This document shows positions 1 through 5,820 of a stretch of DNA of 5,820 nt, piece after piece. Position 1 is the stretch's first letter, and the number at the start of each line of letters is the position of its first letter. The position numbers and the translations under genes were made by a program. The notes beneath the pieces were generated by a model. It had not been told where the DNA came from and ran no database searches. It saw nothing but the letters and a program-made list of their open reading frames with translations. The DNA is from a virus (taxonomy: Duplodnaviria; Heunggongvirae; Uroviricota; Caudoviricetes). The stretch lies in the IMG/VR virus record IMGVR_UViG_2802429250_000001. One strand, given 5' to 3'.

Positions 1-90
1 GCTGATCACCGTTACTACAGCACGCCAGAAATGCAGAATATTTTGCTGCAAAATGTCGTTGGTCACGCTGTCCGGAAAGCAAAAAATTTT

Positions 91-283
91 GCTGGTGGCG
101 CGACTGATGCGATTTTGTCAGGTCGCAAGGTGATGATCAATCTGATGTCTAATTTCGTTCTGGATAAAACAAAGGCGACCGCAGAGGGCCACCAGTGGGA
201 AAGCTACACACTTGAACACATCGCCAACAATGCCAGATTTGCGGCTGGTGGGCAATGTGATCAGTGTGCTGGCTTGCTGGTGG
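91..283 (+). other. Cluster of three co-oriented Chi octamers (5'-GCTGGTGG-3') at 91-98, 244-251 and 276-283
   Basis: Exact octamers read directly on the + strand; the surrounding 1-542 region has no convincing ORF. Further single Chi octamers: + strand 4165-4172; - strand (CCACCAGC on +) 1310-1317 and 4994-5001. Confidence 0.7.
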
Positions 284-542
284 GCTATTCCTGCTCTTTA
301 ACATTGCCATGCCGCGATGTTTTCCAGGTATGCGACCCCATTTTTGTGCGCCTGTACTCTTTAAGGAATTTCTCAAGGATAAACGCACAGGGCGCGAATC
401 TGTCTGACTCATATTCGTACGCTATCTTTCTGCGCTGTCTTTTCCGTGCCGGTGATGGTGTATTGGTCGATTCTTTGTTGGTCATTCTGTGTACCTGTAA
501 AGCAATGCGCCGGAGTTCCTCACACCACGGCGATGATAGTTA

Positions 543-848
543 TTATTCTGATTCTTTGGCCTTGCGGCGCTGGAGTTCTTCACGTGCGACGGTGACGAGC
601 TGCCCGATCTCCTCGACAGCTTTGACTCCGATTTTTTCCACCTGCGCCAGTGCATTGAGCGAAGAAACCAGGGGATTTTCTCCGCTTCCTTCTGCCTGGC
701 GGCGGGCGATCTCACCACGCATGGCGGTTACTATGAATCCGGCGTTGCTTTCGCCGTCCAGTTTTACGGATTCCATGCCTTCAAAAGCATCATGTGGGAT
801 ACGAATTGAAATCTGTTTTGATTTGTCGTTGATAGTGTTTTTTGCCAT
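543..848 (-). CDS. Small DNA-binding regulator, ribbon-helix-helix (Arc/CopG-like) N-terminus, about 101 aa; likely repressor of the divergent operon
   Basis: ORF-track frame 543-887 trimmed to the ATG at 846-848, which sits 6 nt after GGAGA (rc of 855-859); an alternative ATG at 852-854 has no spacing. N-terminus KQISIRIPHDAFEGMESVKLDGESNAGFIVTAMRGEIARRQ fits a beta-strand / helix / G-x-S turn / helix pattern. Stop is TAA (rc of 543-545). Confidence 0.55.
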   Translation of the reverse strand: MAKNTINDKSKQISIRIPHDAFEGMESVKLDGESNAGFIVTAMRGEIARRQAEGSGENPLVSSLNALAQVEKIGVKAVEEIGQLVTVAREELQRRKAKESE

Positions 849-870
849 GTGCATTCTCCTAAACAAAAGA

Positions 871-946
871 TGTGATTCAGTATACACAAAAAAGAATCAC
901 AAAAAATACTTGACCTGTGATTCAGTTAAATTTAATTTAAATCACA
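871..946. promoter_or_regulatory. Divergent promoter/operator region: two inverted repeats TGTGATTC...(G/A)AATCACA at 871-901 and 917-946, overlapping candidate promoter elements
   Basis: TGTGATTCAG at 871-880 and 917-926; GAATCACA at 894-901 and AAATCACA at 939-946. Rightward -35-like TTGACC at 910-915 with an A/T-rich -10 candidate 17 bp downstream (TAATTT 933-938); another TATAAA at 961-966. Leftward -10-like TATACT (rc of 879-884) lies inside operator 1. No transcript start-site data. Confidence 0.45.
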
Positions 947-971
947 CCTCAGTAAGAGGATATAAACGACA

Positions 972-1005
972 ACGCCCCGAACTGTTTGCGGCAGTAGCGG
1001 GGCGT
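972..1005 (+). promoter_or_regulatory. GC-rich hairpin in the operon leader (ACGCCCCG / CGGGGCGT stem, 18-nt loop)
   Basis: 972-979 ACGCCCCG is the exact reverse complement of 998-1005 CGGGGCGT. The loop has a further CTG/CAG pair (982-984 / 992-994). No U-tract follows on either strand, so it is not a canonical intrinsic terminator. It sits about 30 nt upstream of the ORF1 start. Confidence 0.4.
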
Positions 1006-1035
1006 CTAACCAAACCGTTAAATGAGGTAACGATT

Positions 1036-1401
1036 ATGGCTGGGGCACAGCATACCCAAACTCACCCTAAATTTATATACACCTTCCTGGCGGTGCACCG
1101 TGATTGCATCGCTGACGGTAAAAATACTGTTCATGTAGCCGCCGATACGCTGGTTGATGCCTGCGAGATGCTCAATGACATGGGCTATATCTCGGCAACA
1201 TGGAAAGGGCGTGAAGAAAACACGTTGTTTATTCAGAAATGCGAAAACAATTTTATCTGGCGTTTTATCGCCCTGAGTACGGCACAACCGCGCGTGATTC
1301 ACATCGAGGCCACCAGCGAACAGGAAGCACGCCAGCAATCTCCTGATGGCTGCGTGATGGTATTCGCTGCCCGTATTCGCCAGGAGGTGGAGCATGTGTA
1401 A
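1036..1401 (+). CDS. Hypothetical protein, ORF1 (121 aa), first gene of the rightward operon
   Basis: ATG 1036-1038 preceded by GAGG (1024-1027) at 8-nt spacing; same frame as the spurious 31-1401 ORF. Stop TAA 1399-1401 overlaps the ORF2 start (ATGTGTAA). Confidence 0.55.
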   Translation: MAGAQHTQTHPKFIYTFLAVHRDCIADGKNTVHVAADTLVDACEMLNDMGYISATWKGREENTLFIQKCENNFIWRFIALSTAQPRVIHIEATSEQEARQQSPDGCVMVFAARIRQEVEHV

Positions 1402-1618
1402 TGCAACATGGCCTGATGCAGCGGTAGACGCTATCAAAACGCTGATGGATTCACTTATTGAGATTTCTGCTATCGCTGGTGTGGCGCATAAACACGCAGC
1501 CAGAGAATCAGAATGCATCTCCCATTATTTAGCATTTGTGCAGCTGAAAGCCGATCAGGCACTGGATAAGGCCGGAAAAATTATCATGGCTGATGTACAG
1601 GAGGTGCACCATGCATAA
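1394..1618 (+). CDS. Hypothetical protein, ORF2 (74 aa)
   Basis: ATG 1394-1396 preceded by AGGAGG (1383-1388) at 5-nt spacing; 8-nt start/stop overlap with both neighbours. Confidence 0.55.
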   Translation: MCNATWPDAAVDAIKTLMDSLIEISAIAGVAHKHAARESECISHYLAFVQLKADQALDKAGKIIMADVQEVHHA

Positions 1619-2690: not shown

Positions 2691-4486
2691 AAAACGCACC
2701 GAATTTAAAATATCAGCCGAAGGATAAATTCACCGAGGTAATCATTTTTGCCGGGACGGATGCTTACGCCCATGCTCAACACTGGATTGAAAGCGAAGGA
2801 CGAAAACACGGCGATAACGTGCCTCCTGTTTACCTGGGGCCAAAGCAACTGGCAGACCTGGCGAATATCCGCATTGTCGACGATGAACGCCGCTTTGCGC
2901 GTGTCTATCTCGCGGGGGAGATAGAGCCAATCCAGATCAATGCTATTGCTGAAAAGCTGGCGCTGGCTGGTGTACAGGACGCGAAATTATACAAAGGTAT
3001 CACCGACCGGGAGCCGGAAAACTGGCGCGACTACCTGCAACGGATCCGCGAACAGGCAGAGAGTGGGGAAGTTTCAGCGATGAAATTAGCCACAAAAAAT
3101 ATTGACCTATCTAGGCCAGCACTAAATCAGATGGGAGCCAGCCAGAGAGGGGAAGTGTTACTTGAATATTATGGAAGAGCACTGGCTATAAATGATGATT
3201 CTGATGTAGTTCACCATTACAACGGAATTGTCTGGGTGCCTGTATCTGATAAGGAACTCCAGCGGGCTATGGCGCAGATTTTTATTGATGCGGAAATCAG
3301 CTATTCGCAGAACGCCATCAAATCGGCGGTCGATACCATGAAGTTAAGTTTGCCCGTAATGGGGAATACAGCCCGTAACCTGATTGGATTCAGTAACGGG
3401 GTATTTGATACCAGAACTGGTAATTTTCGGGAGCATAACAAAAACGACTGGTTGTTAATTGCCAGTGAATTACCTTTCAGCCCACCAGCAGAGGGGGAAA
3501 CGCTGGCAACACATGCGCCGAATTTCTGGAAGTGGTTGCGCCGTTCGGTGGCTGAGAATGACCGCAAGGCAGATCGCGTACTGGCGGCGTTATTCATGGT
3601 GCTGGCGAATCGGTACGACTGGCAGTTATTTCTTGAGGTAACGGGGCCGGGTGGAAGCGGTAAAAGCGTAATGGCGGAGATTTGCACTATGCTGGCGGGT
3701 AAGGCCAACACGGTATCGGCAAGCATGAAGGCGCTGGAAGATGCCAGGGAACGTGCGTTAGTGGTTGGCTTTTCGCTGATTATCATGCCGGATATGACCC
3801 GTTACGCTGGTGATGGTGCAGGGATTAAGGCCATTACAGGCGGTGATAAGGTGGCAATCGACCCGAAACATAAAGCCCCCTACTCAACACGCATTCAGGC
3901 GGTCGTGCTGGCGGTGAACAATAACGCCATGTCATTCAGTGACCGCAGCGGTGGGATATCACGTCGTCGGGTAATATTCAATTTTTCGGAAGTTGTACCG
4001 GAGAACGAACGTGACCCTATGCTGGCTGAAAAAATAGAAGGAGAGCTGGCGGTAGTGATTCGCCACCTGCTTACACGCTTTTCTGACCAGGACGAAGCTA
4101 AACGCCTGCTATATGAGCAGCAGAAATCAGAAGAAGCCCTGGTGATAAAACGCGAGGGCGATTCGCTGGTGGACTTCTGCGGCTATCTCATGTCGTCGGT
4201 AATGTGCGATGGCCTGTTAGTGGGTAATGCTGAAATTATTCCGTTCAGCCCGCGCAGGTATCTCTATCACGCCTATCTGGCGTATATGAGGGCACACGGA
4301 TTCGGTAAGCCCGTAACACTGACACGCTTCGGTAAGGATATGCCAGGGGCAATGGCGGAATACGGCAGGGAGTATATGAAACGGAAAACGAAGCATGGCT
4401 TGCGTTCAAACGTGATACTGACAGAGGATTCAGAAGACTGGATGCCCTCATGTGCATCGGTCACAAATGACGATGGCAAAAATTAA
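2687..4486 (+). CDS. Replication initiator/helicase, phage P4 alpha family (D5_N-like region + SF3 helicase P-loop + C-terminal region), 599 aa
   Basis: GTG start 2687-2689 with GGGAGG (2675-2680) at 6-nt spacing. Walker A GPGGSGKS at aa 320-327 (nt 3644-3667); Walker B-like SLIIMPD; SF3 motif C-like VLAVNNN; D5_N-like stretch GFSNGVFDTRTGNFREH. Iterons of the P4 alpha-binding type lie immediately downstream. Confidence 0.85.
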   Translation: MKNAPNLKYQPKDKFTEVIIFAGTDAYAHAQHWIESEGRKHGDNVPPVYLGPKQLADLANIRIVDDERRFARVYLAGEIEPIQINAIAEKLALAGVQDAKLYKGITDREPENWRDYLQRIREQAESGEVSAMKLATKNIDLSRPALNQMGASQRGEVLLEYYGRALAINDDSDVVHHYNGIVWVPVSDKELQRAMAQIFIDAEISYSQNAIKSAVDTMKLSLPVMGNTARNLIGFSNGVFDTRTGNFREHNKNDWLLIASELPFSPPAEGETLATHAPNFWKWLRRSVAENDRKADRVLAALFMVLANRYDWQLFLEVTGPGGSGKSVMAEICTMLAGKANTVSASMKALEDARERALVVGFSLIIMPDMTRYAGDGAGIKAITGGDKVAIDPKHKAPYSTRIQAVVLAVNNNAMSFSDRSGGISRRRVIFNFSEVVPENERDPMLAEKIEGELAVVIRHLLTRFSDQDEAKRLLYEQQKSEEALVIKREGDSLVDFCGYLMSSVMCDGLLVGNAEIIPFSPRRYLYHAYLAYMRAHGFGKPVTLTRFGKDMPGAMAEYGREYMKRKTKHGLRSNVILTEDSEDWMPSCASVTNDDGKN

Positions 4487-4500
4487 ACTTATGGAATAAC

Positions 4501-4654
4501 TGTTCATCAAACTATTCACTGTTCACCTTTTTGATTATTTGTTGAGCTTTAAGGGTGAACAGTGGTGAACAGTTGGTGAATAGTTTTTGTGAAACTGTTC
4601 ACCCCTTAACACAATGAATTAAAAGGAGAAACGGAAAAGGTGAACAGGTGAAGG
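4501..4654. repeat. Iteron cluster, P4 ori/crr type: about 8 copies of TGTTCACC / GGTGAACA in both orientations
   Basis: TGTTCATC 4501-4508; TGTTCACC 4520-4527 and 4596-4603; GGTGAACA 4554-4561, 4564-4571 and 4639-4646; GGTGAATA 4575-4582; GGTGAAGG 4647-4654. The three copies at 4554-4582 are spaced 10-11 bp apart. Confidence 0.75.
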
Positions 4655-4942: not shown

Positions 4943-5157
4943 CGGTACAAATATCCGCTTACGGGCGGCAGGTGGCTGATCTGCACTCAAAAACCACCAG
5001 CAAGGGAACACCAATGGCAATGGCGAGTATGGCAGTTCCCCTTCCGCGCAGCCAGGCAGATGACGGAACGGCGAAACGTGGCTGGTCTGGTTATCGCAGA
5101 CAGCGTAATCAGTGCGCGAACGGTGCGGCTGGGCGGCAAAAAAGGCCAGCAGAGTGA
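4939..5157 (+). CDS. Hypothetical small basic protein (72 aa)
   Basis: ATG 4939-4941 preceded by GGAGAG (4926-4931) at 7-nt spacing; overlaps the upstream ORF stop (ATGA). Product is low-complexity and basic, so it may be a gene remnant. Confidence 0.35.
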   Translation: MTVQISAYGRQVADLHSKTTSKGTPMAMASMAVPLPRSQADDGTAKRGWSGYRRQRNQCANGAAGRQKRPAE

Positions 5158-5234: not shown

Positions 5235-5561
5235 ATGATTTACTTTGTGAAGAAATTTAGTGAAATAGTGGAAAAGTCTTCTGGTGCTTTGTCTTTCGGG
5301 ATTATACAGAGTCTCGTTATGATAGGTATAATTGCAAATTTATCTTCTCAAACAGGTGTAAGGTATTTCATCTTGCTTACTATTGCATTTATTGCAACTA
5401 TAAGTATTGCATTATGTATGTTGAGTATAATATCTGTTATTAACGAAGTGACAGGAAAACATAAGTACATGAAGTTTTTGTTTGGGATTCTGCTGTACCC
5501 TTCTTTTATTGGTGTTATTCTTTCTGCGTACCTGAGTATTAAAGCACTAATAGTCAGTTAA
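5235..5561 (+). CDS. Small integral membrane protein (about 108 aa, three predicted transmembrane helices) in an AT-rich islet
   Basis: ATG 5235-5237 with AAAGGTGA (5222-5229) upstream, preferred over the track's GTG 5226. Three hydrophobic stretches: GALSFGIIQSLVMIGIIANL, VRYFILLTIAFIATISIALCMLSIISVI, FLFGILLYPSFIGVILSAYLSI. A 50-nt sample counted 30% G+C against about 50% for the rest of the window. TATAAA at 5193-5198 is a candidate -10. Confidence 0.6.
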   Translation: MIYFVKKFSEIVEKSSGALSFGIIQSLVMIGIIANLSSQTGVRYFILLTIAFIATISIALCMLSIISVINEVTGKHKYMKFLFGILLYPSFIGVILSAYLSIKALIVS

Positions 5562-5640: not shown

Positions 5641-5820
5641 ATGAAAAGTACACATGGAAAAGCTGACCATCAACAGAAATTACGGTATGCCACAAAAATG
5701 GTACAGGAGACGCAACAGCAGGATAAAACCACATCGGCATATAAAGTGATGCCCGGTAATCAGAACGCGCAGCAGAAGCCCACAGGGGCGACACCGTGGC
5801 GGCATATGACCAAACGCCAG
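5641..5820 (+). CDS. 5' part of a hypothetical gene that runs off the right edge of the window
   Basis: The frame is open from 5584 to the window end. First ATG at 5641 (MKSTHGKADHQQKLRYATKMVQETQQQDKTTSAYKVMPGNQNAQQKPTGATPWRHMTKRQ...); alternative ATGs at 5698 and 5749. Absent from the ORF track because it has no stop in the window. Shine-Dalgarno is weak. Confidence 0.35.
   Translation, partial: MKSTHGKADHQQKLRYATKMVQETQQQDKTTSAYKVMPGNQNAQQKPTGATPWRHMTKRQ

Follow-up and report, generated by a model that had tools for sequence, protein, structure and literature searches.

A cluster of co-oriented Chi octamers in a mosaic, unannotated region of an EcCIMP1-like satellite family of Escherichia coli

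The window analyzed here, a stretch of 5,820 nucleotides deposited as IMG/VR record IMGVR_UViG_2802429250_000001, belongs to an EcCIMP1-like PICI satellite of E. coli. Its positions 1-540 are 100% identical to E. coli chromosomes, and parts of it match 1840 of 5426 complete E. coli genomes. The closest full-length relative (96.8% identity) resides in strain APEC IMT5155 (locus L268), where the element adjoins tRNA-Thr after proA and has the MarR-Vat island on its other side. The gene order at L268 is: integrase, a hypothetical gene, an AlpA-like HTH protein, the AntA antirepressor, a gap, orf66 and ylcI/ynfO (both on the minus strand), an Icd-like gene, five small genes including one of the DUF4222 family, primase, a ProQ/FinO-like gene, a PerC-like gene and others. 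The annotation of L268 and of another relative, L267, reveals the features expected of a PICI, namely an integrase next to a tRNA, alpA, a primase/replication module and an ori, with no capsid or lysis genes, all within ~10-15 kb. The assignment to the EcCIMP1 type is based on the agreement of the gene set and the location with the description of EcCIMP1 (PMC11773190). A scan of species-representative genomes with an 18-nt pattern returned nearly exclusively chance matches, with Escherichia albertii as the sole real match, and at this stringency the element looks confined to Escherichia.

Within the window, the minus strand encodes orf66 (285-485, a hypothetical protein, phrog_21027) and a YlcI/YnfO-family gene (543-848, phrog_6522). 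The AT-rich divergent region between ylcI and icd (860-950) contains GTGATTCAG twice (at 872 and 917) and AATCAC at 895 and 940, which look like operator repeats around a putative TTGACC...TAATTT promoter. The primase gene is followed immediately, at 4501-4646, by seven P4-type ori octamers (TGTTCACC/GGTGAACA, with at most one mismatch), distributed over both strands; they are probably the replication origin of the island, because the same 8-mer is annotated as "ori type 1 repeat" in the ori and crr of P4. An AT-rich ORF of 108 codons at 5235-5561 encodes a very hydrophobic, membrane-like protein and looks like an inserted cargo gene, since it falls in a segment without exact 25-mer matches to L267 (these end near window position 3500). 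The right end of the window (~5698-5820) contains the start of a gene for a ProQ/FinO-family RNA chaperone, followed in relatives by a PerC-family regulator; the chaperone might have a bearing on the structured 3' ends of leftward RNAs. In L001, the genome that is 100% identical to window 1-540, the primase gene is interrupted by an IS5 transposase (L001 12365-13333); since this renders its island defective, another strain must be the source of the window.

Window positions 1-284, between antA (whose end is 131 nt to the left of the window) and orf66, carry no annotation in the RefSeq record of an identical genome. An exact-match search located the Chi octamer GCTGGTGG on the + strand of this gap at 91-98, 244-251 and 276-283, precisely where the original prediction had reported three same-strand sites. 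The total of six Chi that it gave for the window has to be corrected to seven, four of them on the + strand (starting at 91, 244, 276 and 4165) and three on the - strand (1310, 3482 and 4994). Chi #1 (91-98) belongs to a segment termed module A and reads in frame 1 as GCT GGT GG, i.e. Ala-Gly-Gly. Chi #2 (244-251), also Ala-Gly-Gly in frame 1, lies in module B within a near-invariant core, GGCTGGTGGGCAATG. Chi #3 (276-283) lies in module C, 2 nt past the stop codon of the leftward orf66, reads in frame 1 as (T)TG CTG GTG GGC, i.e. Leu-Leu-Val-Gly, and is identical to Chi #2 at 12/13 bases (GCTGGTGGGC[A/T]AT). Among the other sites, that at 1310-1317 (-) lies inside the conserved Icd-like motif (E-A-T-S-E) and is kept in relatives L003, L004, L006 and L007, those at 3482-3489 (-) and 4165-4172 (+) are within the primase gene, and that at 4994-5001 (-) is downstream of the ori-like iterons.

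The activity of Chi is raised by A or G at nucleotides 4-7 on its 3' side, while T at nucleotides 5-7 is disfavoured (PMC5041463). The corresponding nucleotides in the window (GACT, ATGT and ATTC) are not the favourable A/G-rich contexts; such unfavourable flanks modulate the activity of Chi and do not abolish it. A fourth module found in relatives, A', carries a Chi with the optimal 3' flank AAAA. A high-activity flank context was also considered as the cause of the conservation of GCAATG after Chi #2 and was rejected, as the contexts do not match (PMC5041463).

In dinucleotide-preserving shuffles of the window (n=200), the mean number of Chi was 0.20 and the maximum 2, versus 7 in the real sequence. 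The average of about one Chi per 4-5 kb that the original prediction gave for E. coli agrees with the host value of 1 per 4.6 kb. Two stricter baselines were also calculated. With 1008 Chi per 4.6 Mb of E. coli (PMC12315714), simple arithmetic gives an expectation of ~0.2 co-oriented triplets within 193 bp per E. coli genome, and such a triplet is therefore rare but not impossible in a genome-wide scan. The same-strand density of the island family (85 per 226 kb) translates into a triplet probability of ~0.01 for this window.

Comparison of relatives revealed that the region is a mosaic. Modules A (window 1-140, with Chi #1), B (about 164-262, with Chi #2) and C (about 262-300, with Chi #3) are found apart, reordered, or joined with module A', and this window happens to combine all three. 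Among the 55 unique variants of the corresponding 460-bp region, 29 contain one Chi, 15 contain two, 11 contain three, and none contains zero. All Chi around module B are on the + strand and are located in at least four unrelated sequence modules; Chi #1 and the copy in A' have the octamer alone in common. The module B core is nearly invariant even in variants in which the terminator (see below) and the spacer differ entirely, and the breakpoints at which relatives begin to differ are 7-15 nt 3' of Chi #2. Chi #1 is replaced by GCTGGTAG in 2 of 17 module-A variants, Chi #2 is missing from one of the 24 unique module-B variants (GCTGGTGA), and the octamer of Chi #3 is invariant in the nine unique module-C variants. 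Polymorphic sites number 1/8, 1/8 and 0/8 in the octamers of A, B and C, compared to 23/60, 23/41 and 18/41 in their flanks (pooled: 2/24 vs 64/142; Fisher P = 0.0003).

The island family as a whole is rich in Chi. Its non-redundant DNA (226 kb) contains 144 copies (1 per 1.57 kb), which makes Chi the top-ranked octamer, the second-ranked one having 92 copies; the ranking is unchanged when unique contexts are counted. E. coli itself has 1 Chi per 4.6 kb, at octamer rank 21, with strong depletion in non-coding DNA (PMC12315714; bioRxiv 10.1101/2021.07.08.451572); in the island family Chi is densest in the unannotated DNA. L268 contains 13 Chi in 13.6 kb: its annotated genes carry 7, versus 1.31 +/- 1.08 in synonymous-codon shuffles (0/1000 reached 7), i.e. 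a ~5-fold excess, and 6 further Chi are found in 3.8 kb incompletely covered by annotated genes. The window's own genes contain 3 Chi versus 0.56 in the same type of shuffles (P = 0.008). The maximal-order Markov expectation (observed/expected 1.33) was rejected as a control, because the 7-mers inside Chi are themselves enriched, and the synonymous-codon shuffles were used instead. The original prediction had proposed counting Chi density and orientation across the whole element; the orientation is uniform in the 460-bp region only, as outside it the family Chi display no orientation bias (to the right of module B, about 147 on the + strand vs 158 on the - strand, as sums). No extended consensus was found around 237 family Chi contexts. 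Altogether, the top rank of Chi among the family octamers, its excess over the codon expectation, the higher conservation of octamers than of their flanks and the presence of Chi in 55/55 variants support selection on the Chi octamer itself.

The PHROG scan of ten L268 proteins and four window/L001 proteins, several of which are without known function, named no recombinase or RecBCD inhibitor, and neither did the Pfam scan among the scanned proteins; most PHROG matches were to families of unknown function, and a RecBCD inhibitor may be hidden among the many island proteins of this kind. A lambda-type cos is absent from the closest relatives of the window. Some cousins possess a lambda-type cosN on the + strand ~6.7 kb right of the cluster, which is there in the "active" orientation; a cos-based orientation argument was nonetheless rejected for this element, since cos occurs in some cousins and not in the closest relatives. 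The IMG/VR contig L127 has the lambda-type cos GGGTCCTTTCCGGCGATCCGGTAGGCTACG|GGGCGGCGACCTCGCGGG at 602 and 13366 (12.76 kb cos to cos), with all six of its Chi in the half right of module B and zero in the 6 kb to the left.

Module B has features of a leftward transcript end. An intrinsic terminator of the ylcI-orf66 transcript is predicted on the minus strand at 164-193 (stem 193-174, GGTGGCC CTCTGC GGTCGCC, then TTTGTTTTAT), the terminator scan of this strand reporting a 7-bp GC-rich stem followed by the U tract TTTGTTTT. Single-side changes in its arms across variants are G.U-compatible on the minus strand only, other variants display a compensatory G:C to C:G swap (GGCGACC/GGTCGCC to GGCCACC/GGTGGCC), and some have a wholly different but perfect terminator stem. 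Directly upstream of the terminator on the same strand, RNAalifold predicted a hairpin, SL1, at 219-257 (CAUUGCC...GGCGAUG on the minus-strand RNA), which in this window extends to about 202-275 and has the complement of Chi #2 in its 5' arm. The fold of the 131-nt RNA 290-160 (-) has an energy of -47.6 kcal/mol (z = -3.8); folding energy is indecisive as to the strand, the + strand folding about as well as the minus strand. The covariation test for SL1 was not significant, with too little variation among the variants. Judging from these predictions, the ylcI-orf66 transcript seems to have its 3' UTR and terminator in module B here.

The Rfam 15 scan of window 1-540, including C4/CI-type RNAs, gave no match at E <= 1, the sole match in the window being a chance miRNA match at 4497-4586, and the scan of L001 8600-10300 gave sub-threshold chance matches only (E <= 10). 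A candidate small RNA of ~78 nt was noticed on the minus strand at L001 8884-8997, 4-117 nt outside the left end of the window. A promoter-like TTCACT-17-TATAAT, whose -10 is of the extended type (TGATATAAT) in other variants, is followed by a strong terminator with a stem of 11 pairs, a GCAA loop and a U tract. The conserved segment is GCGCAGUAGG...GGCGCUCCGGCAACGGGGCGC, and the candidate has no match in Rfam.

On the + strand, a long open frame (frame 1) covers 1-1401 and ends in an Icd-like domain (about 1246-1401). It starts with an ATG overlapping the antA stop codon (ATGTGTAA), 138 nt left of the window (L001 8863), has a total of 512 codons, is antisense to orf66 and ylcI, and crosses the divergent promoter region. 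Of 47 unique family variants, 43 are free of frame-1 stops from Chi #2 up to the Icd motif, and the distances between the two fall into 19 classes (477-1578 nt), every one a multiple of 3, with 5-41 stops in the other two frames over the same span. Across the gap, a 284-aa protein named "Icd-like" or "ash family" is often annotated, by PGAP as well as by other pipelines. The frame-1 product matched no family in Pfam, PHROG or NCBIfam except for the C-terminal Icd-like domain; an Ash-family match was obtained in a different variant only, downstream of the conserved core. The polymorphic sites in the first 362 nt of frame 1 are distributed over the codon positions as 13/13/10, compared to 35/32/57 in antA, i.e. 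no third-position excess is seen in the start region of the frame. Protein coding was rejected on the basis of this pattern as the cause of conservation in modules A and B. The frame is kept open, yet the protein does not look conserved in this region; the openness could reflect a long translated leader that avoids Rho termination, or a real overlapping gene. The stop/start overlap CATGTGTAA occurs both after icd (window 1394-1401) and after antA (L001 8863-8870), and the ORFs downstream of both junctions begin with M-C-N-A. This similarity suggests that duplication or recombination of the junction downstream of icd gave rise to the DNA that follows antA.

The original prediction described the gap as apparently non-coding, which is correct for RefSeq, where nothing is annotated at 1-284, but not for the other annotations that call a long ORF, nor for the frame itself. 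It had also foreseen that a genuine coding sequence with repeated Ala-Gly-Gly or Leu-Val-Gly might account for the octamers: they do lie in a kept-open frame, as Ala-Gly-Gly twice and Leu-Val-Gly once, but there is no protein-level conservation at that place.

The kept-open frame and the RNA element form the basis of the main rival explanation, doubtful though entirely conceivable, in which the octamers are a by-product of the leftward element (SL1 and terminator, the ylcI-orf66 3' UTR, possibly a small RNA) and of the open frame, with no selected role of RecBCD at this place. In its favour, Chi #2 forms part of a conserved hairpin stem that immediately precedes a terminator on the minus strand, which itself exhibits the compensatory swap and the G.U-only changes. 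The two changes at or beside Chi #2 that are each seen in a single variant (GCTGGTGA and GCTGGTGGA) are transitions that preserve RNA pairs, and the invariant block of 15 nt reaches beyond the octamer. The openness of frame 1, with all three octamers inside, and the 3' flanks that are suboptimal for Chi activity (PMC5041463) point in the same direction. However, this explanation does not account for the co-oriented Chi in the unrelated modules A, A' and C, for the lower variability of octamers than of flanks in all three modules, or for the top-octamer rank and the excess over codon expectation. The covariation of SL1 is not significant and the open frame shows no amino-acid conservation here, which also speaks against it.

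We give little credence to the octamer being part of a longer repeated recognition motif, for instance GCCCACCAGC on the leftward RNA or on DNA, bound by a regulator of the island or by the ProQ/FinO-like RNA chaperone. Such a motif would agree with the near-identity of Chi #2 and #3 over 13 bases, with the reappearance of CCACCAG at 189-195, where it is able to pair with both of them, and with the presence of a ProQ/FinO-family gene in relatives, but Chi #1 and the A' copy are alike in the octamer only, the Chi contexts of the family show no extended consensus, and the known RNA families of Rfam give no match. About equally little credence is due to mere chance together with a short duplication at this place, against a background of codon usage that already makes the octamer common in the genome. 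The host-density expectation, the resemblance of Chi #2/#3 to a 13-nt duplication and the separate occurrence of the three Chi-bearing modules in relatives agree with it, but it is contradicted by the number of Chi in the window compared to the shuffles, by the presence of Chi in every region variant, by the specific conservation of the octamers and by the family-wide excess that persists after the control for codon usage.

We therefore lean, with some reserve, towards the interpretation that the three octamers are genuine Chi sites and may represent a local peak of a RecBCD-directed Chi load that is selected throughout this E. coli PICI satellite family. Weighing against it are the missing orientation bias outside the region, the suboptimal 3' flanks, the larger invariant block and hairpin around Chi #2, to which the conservation of this site could also be due, and the position of all three octamers in the kept-open frame. 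RecBCD recognizes 5'-GCTGGTGG-3' from the 3' side, nicks a few nt 3' of Chi and loads RecA (PMC5041463, PMC12315714), and it is this octamer that the E. coli enzyme reads (PMC12315714). The orientation logic of the original prediction is sound, as a co-oriented cluster on the + strand is correctly placed for RecBCD entering from the right. Linear forms of the island that could be exposed to RecBCD would include a rolling-circle tail, packaged or transduced DNA, and the broken chromosome when the island is integrated. RecBCD travelling leftward via the primase/icd side would meet up to three correctly oriented Chi within 193 bp, and three in a row may raise the recognition at this point, because a single Chi is not recognized at every passage. 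At Chi, degradation of the Chi-containing strand would stop and RecA would be loaded; as a result, the int-alpA-antA side would be preserved and recombination could begin, leading to recircularization, repair or exchange with related islands. If a headful helper packages terminally redundant multimers, as in P1, dense unoriented Chi could also aid recircularization. The cluster may be located here because no other part of the island is as mosaic and as little constrained by protein coding. The analysis demonstrates the sites with their orientation, the enrichment across the family and the conservation specific to the octamer, whereas each RecBCD and RecA step, and the benefit to the island, we infer.

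At the L268 locus, the + strand runs with proB and proA, in what we take from the K-12 map to be the direction of the leading strand of that replichore, so that the cluster would also point in the direction in which Chi is usually active during repair of the chromosome. We speculate further, while considering it improbable, that the cluster is a dedicated RecBCD "stop and recombine" site, that the PICI needs the host RecBCD-RecA pathway to recircularize and survive in a new cell, and that the same sites drive the local shuffling of modules. If so, Chi would influence how successfully a very common E. coli satellite family is transferred as well as how its mosaics evolve, and the strategy of "no Rec module, high Chi" would extend from phages to their parasites.

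It is debated whether Chi is selected in mobile DNA or is a mere by-product of codon usage, and Chi-rich phages without recombination genes of their own have been described only recently. The island family, of which about one in three complete E. coli genomes contains at least a portion, has a conserved co-oriented hotspot in unannotated DNA, and if the preferred interpretation is true, phage satellites share the RecBCD/Chi strategy of Chi-rich phages. The island also offers a small, tractable test case for Chi in transferred DNA, with 14 kb, three sites and a close relative whose helper is known. To date, we found no paper linking Chi or RecBCD to PICIs. EcCIMP1 itself, a PICI of E. coli MP1, is mobilized by the helper phage Kapi1 (PMC11773190). 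It shares with the closest relative of the window the chromosomal site between proA/tRNA-Thr and the MarR-Vat island, and, going by its description, the gene set (integrase, AlpA, antirepressor, "Ash family protein", primase, PerC); unlike the present analysis, the paper makes no mention of Chi, RecBCD or the intergenic region (PMC11773190).

The satellite P4 (NC_001609, locus L269) resembles the island in the ori/crr iterons TGTTCACC after the primase gene and in the order of an alpA-like gene, a long open frame ending in an Icd/kil-like segment, and then primase, but it differs in having cohesive (cos) ends and sid/psu/delta genes. No Chi was found on either strand of its 11,624 bp, which indicates that Chi richness is not general to E. 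coli satellites. A relation to the P4 immunity region was rejected, as no DNA similarity was detected between P4 and window 1-1450. The historically annotated 137-aa "cI ORF" of P4 ends in a sequence resembling the start of the Icd-like ORF of the island, which parallels the long open frame described above.

A high density of Chi in non-ORF DNA, together with its top rank among octamers, has been published as the signature of the RecBCD-dependent phages LLS and P1 (PMC12315714; bioRxiv 10.1101/2021.07.08.451572). LLS (Zheng et al. 2025) is a Chi-rich lambdoid phage without a Rec module, with Chi as its top octamer at 1 per 1.86 kb (PMC12315714). The island family agrees with it in a density above that of the host (1 per 1.57 kb) and in the excess beyond codon usage; among the island proteins scanned, many of them of unknown function, no recombinase or RecBCD inhibitor was recognized. 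On the other hand, LLS is a phage and the island a satellite of about 14 kb, 20 of the 23 Chi of LLS share one orientation, with a concentration near the right cos end, whereas those of the island are uniform in the 460-bp region only, and the benefit of RecBCD to growth was demonstrated for LLS (PMC12315714). In P1 (Subramaniam and Smith), Chi is the top octamer at ~1 per 1.9 kb, with near-random orientation and a density in non-ORF DNA equal to that in ORFs, and it has been proposed to serve RecBCD-RecA recombination of the linear terminally redundant DNA after injection (bioRxiv 10.1101/2021.07.08.451572). In the island family Chi is likewise the commonest octamer and abundant outside ORFs; P1 differs in that its Chi concentrate near the genome ends and its RecA/RecBCD dependence is experimental. 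According to the account of Dabert et al. 1992 given in bioRxiv 10.1101/2021.07.08.451572, an oriented Chi lets a rolling-circle plasmid with a free double-strand end survive RecBCD, and Chi plasmids form high-molecular-weight DNA; that system was engineered. The closest kind to the island family are the high-Chi mobile elements without a Rec module (LLS and P1), with which it has density, top octamer rank and excess beyond codon usage in common; it would be a further member of this known class and not a new mechanism, with a Chi density higher than that of either LLS or P1.
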